Source: an uncultured Chitinophaga sp. | GTDB taxonomy: Bacteria > Bacteroidota > Bacteroidia > 2-12-FULL-35-15 | Direction: 5' to 3' | NCBI GenBank assembly: GCA_964549315.1 | Contig: CAZJUY010000003.1 | Coordinates: 45,729-109,728, forward strand | Length of the DNA stretch: 64,000 bases | Part shown: in pieces, positions 3,164-37,004 of the stretch | Layout of the letters: each line of letters begins with the position of its first letter | Position numbering within the stretch: the first letter of the stretch is position 1 | Program-made: the position numbers and the translations under genes | Notes under the pieces: model-generated | What the model saw: only the letters and a program-made list of their open reading frames with translations | What the model was told of the DNA's origin: nothing | Databases searched by the model: none

Positions 3164-3343
3164 TTATTTCTTTTTTTCTATTCTTCCTTTTTCTTTATTA
3201 AAACCATACGGGCAATGTCTGCATCCATTTTGACAACAATACCCTCTTTTTAATAAATACTTTTCAGTAAATACTTTAAAACCTTCAGGTGTTAAATAAT
3301 AATCATCAGGTTCTAATTCATTTTTTGGTGGAATAGTATCCAT
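3164..3343 (-). CDS. Small Cys-rich protein of 59 aa (MDTIPPKNELEPDDYYLTPEGFKVFTEKYLLKRGYCCQNGCRHCPYGFNKEKGRIEKKK), not in the ORF track because it is under 60 aa
   Basis: ATG..TAA ORF directly downstream of hutU on the same strand; CC-x3-C-x2-C cluster suggests a metal-binding mini-protein. Confidence 0.5.
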   Translation of the reverse strand: MDTIPPKNELEPDDYYLTPEGFKVFTEKYLLKRGYCCQNGCRHCPYGFNKEKGRIEKKK

Positions 3344-3366
3344 AGCAACAAAAATACTAATTTTAC

Positions 3367-4259
3367 ATGATGCTTAACTTAAATTTTATTCCCCCATTAC
3401 AAGCAATTGAAGAACCTTTTTTAATCGAAAAAGGAATAAAACTCTATGTTTTAAGATTGGATTTAAATCACGCAGAAATAAGCGGAAATAAAATTTACAA
3501 ATTAAAATACAACCTTGATAAAGCAAAGCAAGAAAACAAAAACACCCTACTCACTTTTGGTGGTGCTTTTTCAAATCATATAGCCGCAACTGCTGCTGCT
3601 GGAAACGAAAACGGATTAAAAACAATTGGTATCATTAGAGGAGATAAATTACCCGATTTAAATCCAACCTTACAACTTGCCGAAAAAAACGGAATGCAAT
3701 TGGATTTTGTTTCGCGTGAACTGTACCGCAATAAAATAGCTTTGATGGATTATGTGAATAATAGATATAATAACGATTCTGTATATATTATTCCAGAAGG
3801 TGGTTCAAATGAATTAGGAGTAAAAGGATGCGCAGAAATTGTTGAACAAATAAACATTGATTTTGATTTTATTTGTACCCCTTGCGGAACAGGAGCAACC
3901 ATTTCCGGAATTATTCTTTCATTAAAACAAAACCAAAAAGCAATTGGATTTCAAGTATTAAAAGCTGAAAATTATATAAAAAACGAAGTTGCAAACTGGT
4001 TAAACACATTTGATAGAACACTAAAAATTGGAAAATAAATGAAGATTACCATTTTGGTGGCTATGCAAAAACAAGTGCCGAATTATTAAATTTTGTTTCT
4101 GACTTTAAACAAAAACACAACATACAATTGGATTATATTTACACAGGAAAAATGATGTTTGGTATATTTGATTTAATAAATAAAAATTATTTTGAAAAAG
4201 GAAAAACAATCGTTGTTATTCATACTGGAGGGTTGCAAGGGAATAGTAGTTTTGATTGA
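3367..4259 (+). pseudogene. 1-aminocyclopropane-1-carboxylate deaminase / D-cysteine desulfhydrase family (PLP-dependent) gene interrupted by a frameshift near 4017-4038
   Basis: N-terminal 223 codons (FGGAFSNHIAATAAAG, PLP fold type II) stop at 4038; the C-terminal part (...NEDYHFGGYAKTSAELL...HTGGLQGNSSFD*) continues in the -1 frame from 4017 to 4259; the shift falls in an A-run (aaaaattggaaaataaat). Confidence 0.7.
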
Positions 4260-25880: not shown

Positions 25881-27263
25881 TTATTTTTTCAATACCTTTT
25901 CTACTTTATAAAATGTTTCCGAGTTTAGTTGTATAAAATAAATACCGCTTTCATATTGAGAAATATCAATTTTTTTGGAATTAGAGCCTGACTTTGAACC
26001 TATTAATTGCTCAAAATATAATTGCTTCCCTAAAACATTTGTAATTTCTAATGTAGTATTTACTCCTGAATATATTTCCCAATTAATAATCAAATAATCA
26101 TTTGCTGGGTTTGGGTAAATTAAAACATTATCTTGAATAGAGCTTTCTTGAATGTTTGTAATAGTTATAGATATTGTATTTGAAACATAAGGACAAGCAT
26201 CTGCATAAGTAACTTCTACATAATAGTTTCCGGACAAAGTGAAATTATATGTTTGACTATTTGCTCCAGCAATCGGATTTCCATTTAAATACCATTGATA
26301 GGTTGTTGCCAGAGTAGATTGTAGCACAGAACCAGTTTGACTAATAACAGGATTTGAATTATTAATGCAAGATTGTAAATAGTTTATTCTTGGAGAAGCG
26401 ACTAAAGAATCATTAAATATATTTCTTGAATTACAAATATCTTTTAAGTAGTACTCAAGCCACAATTTTAGAAAATCAGAAACCACATCTTTTTGCTGAG
26501 CACCAGTTATCGCAGGTGCTGGTGTACATGTTGACTGACCAAAAGAACAATTTGCATTAAAATTTGCAAACTCGCAATGTGCGCCACCTTTTACGCTAAT
26601 AAATGTTTTGCAATTAGAGATTAACGAATCATACATTGGTGTTTGATGTTGATTTGCAGGTGCAACACAATCATTTTGTCCAGAAAAAACTAAACAAGGA
26701 ACGGTAATATTTTGAGCCGCTGTTATTGCAGATGGTGTTGTATTTGCTGCCGCCATTGAAACCATAGTAGTGATATTTGTGTTATTTTTCGCTGCTAAAA
26801 AGGAACTTCCACCACCCATAGAATGACCCATAATTGCGGACTTAAAATTTATGTGATTATAAAATAATGATGACGAATTAGTTGCACTTTCATTTTGCAT
26901 TTTAGTAACTAAAAAGGCTAAATCTTTACCAAACTCTAAATGATTGGGTGAAAAACTACCTTCCGTTCTTGGAAATGCTAAAATGTAACCTTGAGGAACT
27001 AAATCATTCCAAATATTTTGATACGCATCCCATGTCATCACAAACCCATGACCAAAAACAATTAAAGGAAACTGCCCAGCAGATACTGGAACACTAGTTC
27101 CTGCAGTTGTTGTTGGATAATATATCTCTGTTTGAATACTTCTTCCTCCACGAGCAGGATCAGTATAAGTTATTTGAACGTGACCTATTTGATAGGTTTG
27201 TGCATTTACGTTCGCGAATGTTGCAAACAACCCAAATAATGTTAAAAATAATTTCTTTTTCAT
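25881..27263 (-). CDS. Secreted alpha/beta-hydrolase of the cutinase/PETase-like (dienelactone-hydrolase-fold) type with a T9SS type-A C-terminal sorting domain
   Basis: Signal peptide; blocks aligning with Thermobifida cutinase and Ideonella PETase as recalled: IYYPT, MGHSMGGG (nucleophile Ser), VPCLVFSGQNDCVAPA...MYDSL (Asp), GGAHCEFAN (His); C-terminal IYPNPANDYLII...GIYFIQL sorting domain. Confidence 0.7.
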   Translation of the reverse strand: MKKKLFLTLFGLFATFANVNAQTYQIGHVQITYTDPARGGRSIQTEIYYPTTTAGTSVPVSAGQFPLIVFGHGFVMTWDAYQNIWNDLVPQGYILAFPRTEGSFSPNHLEFGKDLAFLVTKMQNESATNSSSLFYNHINFKSAIMGHSMGGGSSFLAAKNNTNITTMVSMAAANTTPSAITAAQNITVPCLVFSGQNDCVAPANQHQTPMYDSLISNCKTFISVKGGAHCEFANFNANCSFGQSTCTPAPAITGAQQKDVVSDFLKLWLEYYLKDICNSRNIFNDSLVASPRINYLQSCINNSNPVISQTGSVLQSTLATTYQWYLNGNPIAGANSQTYNFTLSGNYYVEVTYADACPYVSNTISITITNIQESSIQDNVLIYPNPANDYLIINWEIYSGVNTTLEITNVLGKQLYFEQLIGSKSGSNSKKIDISQYESGIYFIQLNSETFYKVEKVLKK

Positions 27264-29762: not shown

Positions 29763-30827
29763 TTACTTTTTTCTTGGGCCTTTATTTTGTTGGGGAGGCT
29801 TTGTATTACTTGGTCTTTGTTGGGGTTTAACATTAGGTGAATTTGGTTTACTCTGAGGTTTAACCTTATTTGGTTTCGACTTAGGAGAATTGTCAACTGG
29901 TTTCATAACAGGCTTACTATCTGATTTCGGTTCAGATTTATTATAGTTTGGTTTACCTTCTGTTTTAATATTTGAATTTAAAGGTTTTGCTTCTGCTTTA
30001 GATGGTTTAAATGCAGGATTAGTTGTCATTGGTTTACCTTTATTTGGCGAATCGTACGTTTTAACATAAGATCCTTTAGTTCTATTTTGCATTACCATTG
30101 GAGATGAAGACTTTCTTTGTCCGTAATATGTATGTGTATTAGGGCTTCTATAAATTGGAGTTCTATGATAATGTCCATGATAATGATTATGGTAATGATG
30201 ATGATGCCAATAGTAATTATGCCAATACCAAGGTTTCCATGGATTCCACCAAACAGGATAATAATGCCAATACCAAGGCGATACATACACTACATAAACA
30301 GGCGAATAAACATGTCTAATAATAGGCCAATGTCTAACCGTTACATATACTCTTGTATCTGGCGCACTTGAATAATTATTATTAGTTGTATTATTATTTA
30401 CAATTACTGTTTTTCCATCGTTTGAAGAAACATCGGCTTGATTTGATTTTGGAATTGGTGTTTCACTAACTTGTTTTTGATTTGAATCATTTTCTTTTGG
30501 TTCAACAATATAATCCTTGCCATATAAATCTTCATTCCCGACTATTTGAACCAAATAATTATCGTCTTTGCTTTTTTCAATTTCGATAACAGCTACATCT
30601 TGGTTTTCTTTTTCATTTATAGGAATTTGCAAAACCACAGCATGATTGTCTCCATTTTTATTATCAATAACTTTTATGTAATCCGTTTTACCATCATTAT
30701 TCAAATCCAAGTTGTTTATTTTGGAATCTTCTTGGTTTAATTTTTTCTCAAACTCCTCAAAAGTTGCACATTGCTGAAATAAATCTAGCACAGCATACAA
30801 ATTTAAATTATCGCCTGGCAATCCCAA
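29763..30827 (-). CDS. Low-complexity secreted(?) protein with an acidic EF-hand-like N-domain, a His/Tyr/Trp-rich core (WYWHYYPVWWNPWKPWYWHNYYWHHHHYHNHYHGHYH) and a Lys/Pro-rich basic tail. The track ORF starts at TTG; an upstream ATG at 30914 encodes a signal peptide but is separated from the body by an in-frame TGA at 30876..30878
   Basis: Direct reading of composition; upstream frame reads MKKVVFTLVLLR-TGA-FFIKHSFSQSVEKADSLGLPGD... Confidence 0.55.
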   Translation of the reverse strand: MGLPGDNLNLYAVLDLFQQCATFEEFEKKLNQEDSKINNLDLNNDGKTDYIKVIDNKNGDNHAVVLQIPINEKENQDVAVIEIEKSKDDNYLVQIVGNEDLYGKDYIVEPKENDSNQKQVSETPIPKSNQADVSSNDGKTVIVNNNTTNNNYSSAPDTRVYVTVRHWPIIRHVYSPVYVVYVSPWYWHYYPVWWNPWKPWYWHNYYWHHHHYHNHYHGHYHRTPIYRSPNTHTYYGQRKSSSPMVMQNRTKGSYVKTYDSPNKGKPMTTNPAFKPSKAEAKPLNSNIKTEGKPNYNKSEPKSDSKPVMKPVDNSPKSKPNKVKPQSKPNSPNVKPQQRPSNTKPPQQNKGPRKK

Positions 30828-31037
30828 AGAATCTGCCTTTTCAACTGATTGAGAAAAGCTATGTTTTATAAAAAATCATCTTAACAAAACTAATGTAAAA
30901 ACTACTTTTTTCATGGATTATTTTTTTAATGTATAATTCTTTGACAAAAAAGATACCAAAAGGTTTAAAATAAAAAAATAAATGGATTATATAAATAGGA
31001 CTACATGTGCTTACTTGCTGATTTCAATCTAATTATG

Positions 31038-33938: not shown

Positions 33939-36900
33939 ATGAAAAAACTACTATTCATCTTTGCGTTTTTAATTTCTTCACTTATTACCACTTCAAATGA
34001 ATTAATTAAAAACCCTTACGAAATTTATTTTGCCAAAGCCTATACATTAAACCCTAATATCCCAAAGGGAATTTTAGAATCTGTCGCGTTTTGCAATACA
34101 CGCTTTGCTCACATTACCCATACATCTACGCAATCCGAAAGTTGTGCGGGAATTCCAAATGCATATGGTGTAATGGGGCTTACATTAAATGGGGAAAATT
34201 ATTTCTCAAATAATTTAATTCTTGTTTCAACACTATCTGGGTATCCTATAAATGAAATAATTAATTCTCCTGAAAAAAACATTTTGGCATATGCAAAAGC
34301 TTATGAAGCTGTCCAGCAAAAACTTAGTATCAAAGATAATTCTATTACCTCTCAAATTTTAGTTTTAAAATATTTGAGTGAGTTGCCAACTAAAACAATT
34401 GGTCAAGAATATGCATTAAATACGCAACTATACGGCTATTTAGATTTTTTAAGCAATGTAGATTACCAACAATTTTACGGTTTCCCAAATTATGAAATAG
34501 ATTTTATAAAAATATTCGGAGAAAATAATTTTTCTATTTTAAGTTCGCAAAGTATAACCGTTACAGATGAAAATGTATTTAACAAAAGTGGGTTAACTTA
34601 TTCTCCATCTCAAAACAAATCTCCACTATCAGCAGATTACCCTCCTGCCCTGTGGAACCCTGCAGCATCCTGCAACTATAGTTCACGAAGTGGGACTGCA
34701 ATTTCTGCTGTAACAATACATACCGTTCAAGGCAGTTATGCAGGTTGTATATCATGGTTTCAAAATTGTTCGGCAGGAGTTTCTGCACATTATGTTTTGC
34801 GCTCCAGCGATGGGCAAGTAACACAAATGGTTTTGGAGGCACAAAAAGCATGGCATGTTGGTTCCGAAAACCCCTATACTATTGGATTAGAACATGAAGG
34901 CTACATCAGTAATCCTGCTTGGTACACAAATGCAATGTACAATGGATCTGCAGCTTTAGTCCGTGATATCTGTAGTAGCGGTTATGGAATTAATCCTTTG
35001 AGAACATACTATGGACCTGGCTGCTCTGGTGGTTATTCAAATTGCTTACTTGGAAATTGTACTAAAATCAAAGGTCATCAAATGTTTGCAAACCAAACTC
35101 ATACTGATCCTGGCCCAAATTGGAATTGGTCGTTATATTATCATTTAATAAATAATGCTCCAACCATTAATACTGTATCTACTGCTAGCGGAAATTTTTA
35201 TGATAGTGGTGGAGCTGCAGGAAACTATACAAATGATGAACGTTTACTTACACTCATTCAACCTGCAGGAGCAACTACAATTACATTAACGTTCACAAGT
35301 TTTAATATTGAAGCTAATTGGGATTACTTATTTATTTATGATGGAGCTACAACTTCAGCTCCTTTGATTGGAACATATACTGGCACAAGCAGCCCTGGTA
35401 CCGTTAGTTCAAGTGGAGGAAGTTTATTAATTGAATTTAGAAGTGATTGTGCAACTGTATCATCTGGCTGGGTAGCAAATTGGACAAGCAATGCAACTCC
35501 ACCTCCAGTTAGTGATAATACTCCTCCAACAACGATTGTATCAACAACAAATGCCTGGGAAACAGCAAATTTTACTGCAAACTATACTGATACTGATAAC
35601 ACAGGAGGGAGTGGTTTAGAAAAAAGTTATTATCAAGTAATTGATTATAATGGAACCGAATGGAGAGCAAATAATAACAATGGTTTTTTTGCAGATAATT
35701 TTGACTATGCTATTCACTCTGATTGGACAAGTGCAACAGGAACTTGGAATATTAATGCAGGAGCATTGTATCAAAGTGATGAAGTATTGGGCAATACGAA
35801 CATTTATGCTCCACTCAATCAAACATTATCCAACCGATACCTATATAATTTTTATGGAAAAATAGATGGTTCAGGAACTACAAGAAGAGCTGGCTTTCAT
35901 TTCTTTTGTGATGATGGAAGTTTAACAAATAGAGGAAACTCTTATTTTGTTTGGTTCCGAGTGGATGACGCTAAATTGCAAATTTATAAAGTTATAAGTG
36001 ATGTATTTGGTTCACCAGTTGTTGACATTCCACTTACAACAGCTGCAGGTCAATGGTATGATTATAAAATTATTTACGACAGAATTACTGGAAAAATTTC
36101 TGTGTATAGAGACAATTCATTTATTACAAGTTGGACTGACTCTTCACCTTATAGTTCTGGAAATGCAATTTCATTTAGAAGTGGAAATGCAAATTTTGCA
36201 ATAAATGAATTGAAAGTTTATCGTTCAAGAAATCCTTTAACTACCAATGTTTCTGTAGGTCCCGCTTCAACGAATGATATACGATTTCAAAACCCTAATC
36301 CAACAACATTTGCAGGAAAAATAAAATCTATTTGTGCTGACTCAGCTGGAAACTTATCAGCAATCTATTATCACAATTTAAATATTGATTGGACACCTCC
36401 AAGTATTGCTGATACAATTAATGATGGATTAGGTTCGGATATTGTTTATACAAACTCAGCAACACAATTATCTGCAAATTGGAGTTCTTCTATTGATACT
36501 AACTCAGCCATAGCAAGATATTGGTATGCAATTGGAACAACTGCTGGCGCAACAGATGTTGTTAGCTGGACCGACAATTGGTTTAACACAAGCGTCACAC
36601 ACACAGGATTAAGTTTAGTAGATGGACAGATTTACTTTTTTAGTGTTAAGGCTGAAAATGGTGCAGGATTGCAATCTGCCATATTTACAAGCAATGGACA
36701 AACTGTGGATTTAACTCCTACTTCTATTGAAGATAATACTTCAGAAAATTTTCAATTCTCTGTTTATCCAAATCCTTTTACAAATTTCACTACATTAAAT
36801 TATCAACTAAAAGAAAATTCAAAAGTTGAAATAACCTTGTCTGATGTTTTAGGAAAACAAATTATCTTATATAATAATTTACAAACTGCAGGAAAACATG

Positions 36901-37004
36901 ATTTGACAATTGATTCTAAAGCATTAGAATTAAGCAAAGGAATATATTTTATACGAATTAATGTAAATGGAGAAATTAAAACAAATAAAATTTTATTAAA
37001 ATAA
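33939..37004 (+). CDS. T9SS-secreted multidomain N-acetylmuramoyl-L-alanine amidase (Amidase_2/PGRP-type) of 1021 aa: unknown N-domain, amidase, CUB-like, LamG/lectin-like, FN3-like, T9SS type-A CTD
   Basis: Amidase_2 blocks (AHYVL..., IGLEHEG, GHQMF..THTDPGPNWNW); CUB-like WDYLFIYDG; C-terminal VYPNPF...GIYFIRI sorting domain. Confidence 0.7.
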   Translation: MKKLLFIFAFLISSLITTSNELIKNPYEIYFAKAYTLNPNIPKGILESVAFCNTRFAHITHTSTQSESCAGIPNAYGVMGLTLNGENYFSNNLILVSTLSGYPINEIINSPEKNILAYAKAYEAVQQKLSIKDNSITSQILVLKYLSELPTKTIGQEYALNTQLYGYLDFLSNVDYQQFYGFPNYEIDFIKIFGENNFSILSSQSITVTDENVFNKSGLTYSPSQNKSPLSADYPPALWNPAASCNYSSRSGTAISAVTIHTVQGSYAGCISWFQNCSAGVSAHYVLRSSDGQVTQMVLEAQKAWHVGSENPYTIGLEHEGYISNPAWYTNAMYNGSAALVRDICSSGYGINPLRTYYGPGCSGGYSNCLLGNCTKIKGHQMFANQTHTDPGPNWNWSLYYHLINNAPTINTVSTASGNFYDSGGAAGNYTNDERLLTLIQPAGATTITLTFTSFNIEANWDYLFIYDGATTSAPLIGTYTGTSSPGTVSSSGGSLLIEFRSDCATVSSGWVANWTSNATPPPVSDNTPPTTIVSTTNAWETANFTANYTDTDNTGGSGLEKSYYQVIDYNGTEWRANNNNGFFADNFDYAIHSDWTSATGTWNINAGALYQSDEVLGNTNIYAPLNQTLSNRYLYNFYGKIDGSGTTRRAGFHFFCDDGSLTNRGNSYFVWFRVDDAKLQIYKVISDVFGSPVVDIPLTTAAGQWYDYKIIYDRITGKISVYRDNSFITSWTDSSPYSSGNAISFRSGNANFAINELKVYRSRNPLTTNVSVGPASTNDIRFQNPNPTTFAGKIKSICADSAGNLSAIYYHNLNIDWTPPSIADTINDGLGSDIVYTNSATQLSANWSSSIDTNSAIARYWYAIGTTAGATDVVSWTDNWFNTSVTHTGLSLVDGQIYFFSVKAENGAGLQSAIFTSNGQTVDLTPTSIEDNTSENFQFSVYPNPFTNFTTLNYQLKENSKVEITLSDVLGKQIILYNNLQTAGKHDLTIDSKALELSKGIYFIRINVNGEIKTNKILLK

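Follow-up and report, generated by a model that had tools for sequence, protein, structure and literature searches.

Hpn of Helicobacter and SmbP of Nitrosomonas are His-rich bacterial metal-binding proteins. In Escherichia coli, YacH, a protein of the DUF3300 type, is regulated by the Cpx envelope stress system and has been linked to sensitivity to cationic peptides (PMC9600279). Many proteins leave the cytoplasm of Bacteroidetes with a leader that obeys the Q-rule for signal peptidase I substrates, in which cleavage falls at an [S/A/G]↓Q site (Bochtler et al., 2018, PMC5837995; PMC10653852). We describe here a gene that is compared below with each of these systems and that carries an in-frame TGA in its leader. 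It lies in a stretch of 64,000 nucleotides, analysed as a whole and called the window below. The locus is a copy of an ordinary, widespread but uncharacterised exported-protein gene, and its stop codon is no new reading of the genetic code. Our preferred reading, to which we give a probability of roughly 0.58, is that the window holds a real and very recent loss-of-function allele of an ordinary Sec-exported gene.

Direct reading of the window sequence on the minus strand gives an ATG at 30914..30912 that begins MKKVVFTLVLLR. Past the TGA the frame resumes as FFIKHSFSQSVEKADSLGLPGDN... and ends at a TAA (29765..29763). The listed open reading frame starts at a TTG (30827), 87 nt 3' of the ATG, and its annotated product has 354 aa. 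The first-pass annotation had described the ATG, the TGA codon, the frame and the TTG start in just this way, and had offered four explanations for the arrangement: a recent nonsense mutation or pseudogene, a sequencing error, TTG-initiated cytoplasmic expression, and stop-codon readthrough. The first two are supported by what follows and the last two are not. Because the TTG encodes the invariant Leu30 of the family and lies past the signal-peptide cleavage site, it is not a credible native start, and cytoplasmic expression from it loses its footing; judging from the alignment, the TTG "start" is a gene-caller rescue. Rescue of the leader by a frameshift was considered and rejected, as the +1 and -1 frames around AGA TGA stop within 4-7 codons. 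The upstream block listed in Table 1 is probably a promoter. The features of the locus are collected in that table.

Table 1. Coordinates of the features of the locus (window numbering) and the observations behind them.
Feature	Coordinates	Strand	Observation
Upstream block TTTTGGTATCTTTTTTGTC	30943..30961	-	Invariant across window, L083 and L001
Full ancestral coding region, 383 codons plus stop, single interruption at codon 13	29763..30914	-	End-to-end alignment with intact P0121 (393 aa) and P0002
Signal-peptide remnant, codons 1-21, MKKVVFTLVLLR-stop-FFIKHSFS	30852..30914	-	Predicted signal peptidase I site Ser21/Gln22
AGA (Arg), codon 12	30879..30881	-	Derived from AGT (Ser)
In-frame TGA, codon 13	30876..30878	-	Derived from TGT (Cys); L083 and L001 both TGT
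TTG, listed ORF start, Leu30 in motif SLGLPGDN	30825..30827	-	Leu30 invariant in alignment A1, present in all relatives
Acidic N-terminal alpha/beta domain, residues about 23-140	30495..30848	-	AF2 pLDDT 91-97 for nearly all of P0001 1-110; pI 4.3
DLNNDGKTD loop, D70..D78, DxNxDxxxD type	30681..30707	-	D70, N72 and D78 invariant in family alignment
Disordered Asn/Thr/Ser-rich linker with NNTTNNY motif	30354..30494	-	pLDDT 42-58
Trp/Tyr/His/Pro-rich core, residues 188-256	30147..30353	-	Invariant S, P, W, Y, P positions; high-confidence model except His run
Disordered polycationic Lys/Pro/Ser/Asn tail	29766..30146	-	pLDDT about 50-59; pI 10.4

Two relatives allowed the ancestral codons to be read. 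L083, the Logan assembly of SRR18313630, has 94.7% nucleotide identity to the window over 7.2 kb and the same gene order, with DUF3078, mscL and icd on one side of the gene and nth, a 501-aa ORF and an esterase on the other; it encodes the intact 393-aa protein P0121, which starts MKKVVFTFVFFSCFVIKHSFSQ. The second relative (L001/L003), with about 78% nucleotide identity, comes from a MAG that carries the label Arcticibacter sp. MAG_38, and its leader is in frame from the upstream ATG as MKKIVFISVLMMSCFVVKNSFSQ. At the site of the window's AGA TGA, L083 and L001 have AGT TGT (Ser-Cys); polarisation with L001 as the outgroup places S>R, C>stop and V>F on the window branch, each as a derived change. 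The ancestral codon, according to these two relatives, was TGT (Cys) and not the TGG that the sequencing-error explanation had supposed. Comparison with orthologues had itself been proposed in the first-pass annotation, which held that a sense codon at this position in them would point to an ordinary secreted protein. Both orthologues have such a codon, and the more striking readings therefore fall by the annotation's own standard.

If the allele is real, the change from AGT TGT (Ser-Cys) to AGA TGA (Arg-stop) would have struck the signal peptide in its hydrophobic part. A ribosome that starts at the native ATG would stop after 12 residues, and the remaining 370 codons would be left with no credible start and no export signal. 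Arg12 is in itself a charged residue within the hydrophobic part.

What the leader ought to look like was established from a survey of 82 related copies at 78 loci in genomes and metagenomes. The signal peptide is uninterrupted in 81 of the 82 related copies; the window copy is interrupted at codon 13. An [S/A/G]↓Q cleavage site ends the leader in 79 of the 81 uninterrupted copies, and the leader takes the same form in 79 of 81: M-K-K, a hydrophobic stretch, [F/Y][S/A], and then Gln as the first mature residue. From these leaders we take the family to be one of Sec-exported proteins cut by signal peptidase I. A Cys occurs anywhere in the leader in 26 of the 81 uninterrupted copies, at no fixed position and often after non-lipobox residues. 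The Ser-Cys of the relatives was also considered as a lipoprotein signal (signal peptidase II; lipobox [LVI][ASTVI][GAS]C), a reading that we rejected as conservation is seen at the [S/A]↓Q site but not at the Cys. The C-terminus of the family is a disordered tail of the GG[KR][KR] type and not a sorting domain, and the type IX C-terminal Por_Secre_tail (PF18962) was absent from the window protein and from the Pfam families listed for 120 homologues. Since there is no type IX C-terminal domain, the periplasm would be the default destination. Neighbouring genes do carry PF18962.

The alignment of the TGA with Cys TGT in L083 and L001 is the classical signature by which selenoproteins are found, and it could be taken to mean that the codon encodes selenocysteine, in a Sec/Cys pair with the two closest homologues. 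The position, however, lies within a signal peptide that is cleaved off, a leader Cys is present in only 26 of 81 uninterrupted copies without a fixed position, and the preceding residue is also changed, to Arg. The 86 nt that begin with the TGA fold with a minimum free energy of -10.8 kcal/mol (z = +0.79), and 155 of 200 shuffled sequences fold as well. The fold is no better than that of the shuffles, so that the site lacks a structure of the SECIS-like or readthrough-stimulating kind. The only tRNA in the 64-kb window is a tRNA-Leu; a tRNA-Sec is absent from it. We regard the selenocysteine reading as effectively refuted.

The genes around the locus show how TGA is used. Forty-five long ORFs cover 86% of the window and end in TAA (35), TAG (7) or TGA (3, the adjacent nth among them), and no other gene in the window is split by TGA or by any other stop (long ORFs, code 11). 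An organism that reads TGA as sense (genetic code 4 or 25) would have an uninterrupted ORF here, and the low GC content of the genome (31.7%) and the rarity of TGA as a stop would be in keeping with this. The long ORFs are, however, intact under code 11 with three of them ending at TGA; the length of nth fits termination there (221 aa from a TTG or 217 aa from an ATG in the window versus 216 and 220 aa in two relatives), and no other gene needs TGA as sense. These observations refute the alternative code.

A product might nonetheless still be made from a real stop, either by UGA readthrough, with Trp or Cys at codon 13 and export of the protein, or by re-initiation at TTG 30827, which would give a leaderless cytoplasmic form. 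UGA is the leakiest bacterial stop, it ends the fewest of the long ORFs in the window (3 of 45), and the downstream frame is intact with no decay. The sister genomes, however, lack the stop, so it is not a conserved recoding site, and the sequence after the TGA offers no stimulatory RNA structure (z = +0.79). In E. coli, a UGA followed by U terminates translation comparatively efficiently. The TTG encodes an internal Leu that is invariant and has no distinguishing context upstream, and a Sec substrate made without its leader would end up in the wrong compartment. We consider such residual synthesis improbable and unsupported; the readthrough proposed at first pass finds no support in a TGA that ends neighbouring genes and has no structure behind it.

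Selection on the rest of the gene bears on the age of the lesion. Between the window and L083, dS is 0.31 and dN 0.041, with an omega of 0.13 overall and of 0.045 for codons 30-260. Polarised with L001, the whole gene has gained 14 nonsynonymous and 24 synonymous changes on the window branch and 13 and 29, respectively, on the L083 branch; in the folded part (codons 25-260) the window branch carries 1 nonsynonymous and 14 synonymous changes. Neither relaxed constraint nor a frameshift or second stop was found in the window gene from the branch counts and the alignment with L083. By the usual marks of a pseudogene, then, the window gene has the disabling lesion and shows neither relaxed constraint nor further lesions. 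As there is no decay elsewhere in the gene, the lesion is either very recent or not real, and the complete lack of relaxed constraint is equally compatible with an error, with a gene that still works and with a very recent mutation.

The TGA, and perhaps the AGA with it, could accordingly be an artefact of assembly, consensus calling or sequencing, in which case the true leader would read ...LL[S/R]CFFIKHSFSQ and the gene would encode an ordinary exported protein. The remainder of the gene is under purifying selection equal in strength to that in the sister lineage, the 64 kb contain no further gene that is visibly broken, only one assembly has the allele, and the six differences from L083 that fall within 27 nt could mark a mis-assembled patch. 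Against this, the changes are substitutions and not a homopolymer-length problem, two independent damaging substitutions would both have to be errors, and the flanking sequence matches up cleanly with that of L083, showing nothing that would point to a chimeric junction. We take the artefact seriously but judge it unlikely. A real allele is favoured because the two damaging substitutions stand 3 nt apart in cleanly aligned sequence, a pattern that one miscalled base would be less expected to produce. We infer a correct base call and a gene that has fallen silent.

No second instance of the allele turned up in the databases searched, and it is known from one assembly. The 90% cluster of the window protein (P0001) consists of P0001 and the intact P0121 only, and exact P0001 was not found in assembly records. 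A DNA pattern tolerating six variable sites had no match in metagenomes. A protein-guided metagenome scan, which included the low-complexity pattern NNNTTNNN, returned among the matches listed only distant relatives with 41-51% identity and no contig of the same species.

Beyond the leader, the gene encodes a protein of unusual composition. In residues 212-250, His accounts for 28%, Tyr for 23%, Trp for 21% and Pro for 10%. The shares in the extended core (188-256, pI 9.7) are 20% for Tyr, 19% for His, 13% each for Val and Trp, and 10% for Pro, and those in the tail (287-383, pI 10.4) are 22% for Lys, 20% for Pro, 12% for Asn and 11% for Ser. Residue counts and pI values thus bear out the first-pass description of an aromatic and His-rich core between an acidic N-terminal part and a basic Lys/Pro tail. 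The EF-hand-like DLNNDGKTD loop that it had pointed out is also there (30707..30681), with D70, N72 and D78 invariant in the family. It is probably a calcium-binding loop, as its sequence pattern suggests, and it has only weak EF-hand and FG-GAP matches in Pfam (E 0.03-0.25, few members). The AF2 model, built from a 120-sequence alignment, has a pTM of 0.68. Its N-domain consists of three helices followed by a five-stranded sheet, with pLDDT >90 nearly throughout; the core reaches about 88-94 (P0001 161-200 and 221-250), and the His run 67-82. Because the pTM is high despite about 150 disordered residues, the model suggests that the N-domain and the aromatic core form one body, judged here from the pTM rather than from PAE.

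The protein belongs to a large family. At E <= 1e-3, 4511 homologues were retrieved from 5.8 billion clustered proteins, and the 120 matches listed of these range from E 1e-240 to 1e-82 with query coverage of 74-100%. A profile search of 1.84 billion representatives at 50% identity gave 1499 at E <= 1e-3 and 655 at E <= 1e-30; in the best 150 of the 1499, the N-domain was covered in all and the whole profile in most. The homologues have ~350-450 aa and are collinear end to end, and the window protein shares this full-length collinear similarity (family members P0001-P0267). All named sources are Bacteroidota: Flavobacterium, Chitinophagaceae, Ferruginibacter, and Bacteroidales or Bacteroidia MAGs. 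With thousands of uncharacterised homologues in existence, the window protein is no orphan.

The family has a five-part architecture of signal peptide, ~110-aa N-domain, Asn/Thr linker ending in NNTTNNY, core, and basic low-complexity tail. The N-domain carries the motifs SLGLPGDNLNLYAVLDLFQ, NNLDLNNDxKxDYI and LYGKDYIVEP, and its net charge is -6 to -17 across 120 homologues. In NNTTNNY, T177 is invariant and four adjoining residues are >=90% conserved. The core motif, VVYVSPWYWxYYPxWWxPWxPWYWHxYY, is followed by a His/Tyr-rich stretch, and His, Tyr and Trp together make up a median 55% of the 53-residue core (120 homologues). The cores of these homologues have 2-15 His (median 8), with the window copy at the high end, and no core His is invariant in the alignment. 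The tail is positive in 120 of 120 homologues, with a net charge of +6 to +24, and usually ends in GG[K/R][K/R]. A search for compositionally similar proteins had been suggested at first pass; the odd composition proves to be a family trait, conserved across 120 homologues, and is therefore not a product of chance.

The statement that there is no characterised homologue also holds, in that neither Pfam nor NCBIfam has a model for the family and nothing in the PDB matches it. Searches of the window protein against Pfam and NCBIfam gave nothing meaningful (sole match ribK_Meth, E 0.08), and Pfam searches with 19 and 120 homologues at E up to 10 gave low-complexity and weak EF-hand matches only (for the 120, among the matches listed, which cover 25 of 41 families). 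A sequence-profile search of the PDB found only His-tag artefacts. Foldseek of the AF2 model against the PDB gave none at E <= 0.001, and the best hit, a lipocalin/streptavidin-like barrel at E 1.2, was judged noise. The neighbourhoods of 80 loci have no universal partner gene, and synteny is kept only within genera, so that we draw no functional inference from the neighbours.

It is possible, and we advance it tentatively at somewhat short of even odds, that the family forms a class of periplasmic proteins, so far undescribed and spread across the phylum Bacteroidota, that has a new fold and a new function, such as metal buffering or the binding of an anionic envelope polymer; the Trp/Tyr/His/Pro-rich segment would in this case pack onto the acidic Ca-loop domain, and the polycationic tail would tether the protein to the envelope. 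A more specific proposal, which we consider doubtful, is that the intact protein is periplasmic, that its acidic Ca-loop domain and aromatic/His segment bind divalent metal, and that its polycationic tail keeps it on anionic envelope polymers. On this proposal, the acidic, loop-bearing domain, stabilised by Ca, would pack with the aromatic/His-rich segment to bind the metal. It is a functional guess drawn from composition and the AF2 model. The variation of the core His residues, in number (2-15 per core) and with none invariant, speaks against a metal role.

These results have consequences for annotation and for further work. The 354-aa protein that starts at the TTG is an artefact, and the locus should be flagged as a disrupted gene and not propagated as a protein. 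A TGA that aligns with Cys in the closest homologues mimics the selenoprotein signature and is a cautionary case for automated Sec and recoding screens. The family itself deserves attention as a large one without a Pfam or NCBIfam model and without a Foldseek match to solved PDB structures; it keeps its split of acidic domain and basic tail and its extreme aromatic/His core, and yet the core is modelled confidently. Its function is testable, as genetically tractable hosts such as Flavobacterium johnsoniae carry the family. If it is a new class of periplasmic proteins, its loss in a free-living lineage would inform when the gene is dispensable.

We lastly compared the locus with the known systems that it most resembles. 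The window leader is like those of Q-rule Sec/signal peptidase I substrates in its n-region (MKK) and its SFS↓Q site and differs in a hydrophobic region broken by Arg12 and the stop. Like unitary pseudogenes and recent nonsense alleles, the window gene differs by one disabling substitution from orthologues that are intact and share its gene order; unlike them, it is without a second lesion or a rise in nonsynonymous changes. An old pseudogene can be seen in the upstream tandem copy at L064, whose leader contains a TAG and whose aromatic core is gone as well, whereas the rest of the window gene is intact.

Among proteins, the DUF3300 name is given by UniRef to two Flavobacterium members of the family. 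We rejected an identity with DUF3300 (PF11737): the hhalign probability against E. coli YacH is 0.9%, and no Pfam match to it was found in 19 members or among the matches listed for 120 (25 of 41 families). YacH is like the family in being exported, in a VVY-Pro-aromatic stretch (PDVVYIPNYNPTVVYGNWANTAYPPVY), and in a His-rich run (HDHHHH…HHH) that is followed by a long charged low-complexity C-terminus; it has, in contrast, a different N-terminal domain without the LGLPGDN, NNLDLNND and LYGKDYIVEP motifs. The DLNNDGKTD loop resembles the Ca loops of DxDxDG/EF-hand-like and FG-GAP proteins in its invariant D-x-N-x-D-x-x-x-D-Y before a beta strand, but stands alone, outside any helix-loop-helix pair or propeller, and matches to EF-hand models (EF-hand_1, EF-hand_5) were sub-threshold (E 0.03-0.58) in <=6 of 120 members per model. 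With Hpn and SmbP the family shares a closely spaced His run (HHHHYHNHYHGHYH) in a small non-enzymatic protein, and it differs from them in having a His content that ranges from 2 to 15 per core with no invariant position.

The lesion in the signal peptide of the exported-protein gene lies in a short cluster of changes relative to its closest intact copy, on the sister contig L083. Within 27 nt of the leader there are six substitutions, among them Ser>Arg, Cys>stop and Val>Phe, compared with a divergence of 5.3% elsewhere. A G>T change in this cluster also extends the palindrome TTATAA to TTTTATAAAA. A mutation that was templated, or that changed several nucleotides at once, may account for the cluster, which does not reach significance once multiple windows and the fast evolution of leaders are allowed for. 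At the other end of the gene, the Lys/Pro tail of the window copy is missing ten codons (KPSVSKPEGG) that L083 and L001, a MAG labelled Arcticibacter sp. MAG_38, both have. This difference is an in-frame indel within the repetitive tail.

Features discussed in this part (window coordinates unless another sequence is named)
Feature	Location	Strand	Details
PETase/dienelactone-hydrolase-like esterase	25881-27263	-	460 aa; Por_Secre_tail
ORF kept in both L001 and L083	27563-29068	+	501 aa
Tail indel	~29960-29990
Leader substitution cluster	30867-30893	-	codons 8-16; compared with L083
Block TTTTGGTATCTTTTTTGTC	30943-30961	-	~30 nt upstream of the ATG
Amidase_2 + CUB protein	33939-37004	+	1021 aa; Por_Secre_tail
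Tandem upstream paralogue	L064, ~3200-3900		MAG UBA4416
yacH, E. coli K-12	NC_000913, 129407-131260		locus L088; DUF3300

Upstream of the gene, TTTTGGTATCTTTTTTGTC is identical in the window, L083 and L001, and the sequence flanking it has diverged in the same three-way comparison. The block is probably the promoter of the gene, with only a loose similarity to the Bacteroidetes TAnnTTTG -7 box. Among the neighbors, two type IX secretion cargo genes, for the esterase and the Amidase_2 + CUB protein, stand on either side of the region (for both, the Pfam calls were made on the L001 and L083 orthologues). The 501-aa ORF, which has no Pfam match, is convergent with nth, and their 3' ends overlap by 8 nt.

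Damage to a family member was also found at L064, where the signal peptide of the upstream paralogue contains a TAG and the aromatic core is gone; this copy is an old pseudogene with multiple lesions. Loci L045 and L050 also have tandem duplicates, which are seemingly intact. Across the family, all 120 homologues of alignment A3 have both an N-domain that is acidic, with a net charge between -6 and -17, and a tail that is basic, with one between +6 and +24. In the same alignment, the tail usually ends in GG[K/R][K/R] and Cys is nearly absent from the mature regions (median 0).

A similar layout is seen in E. coli YacH, which has a VVY-Pro-aromatic stretch, a His-rich run (HDHHHH…HHH) and a long tail of charged residues. 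Despite this similarity, homology between YacH and the family is undetectable, and the likeness may reflect either convergence or a kinship too remote for detection.
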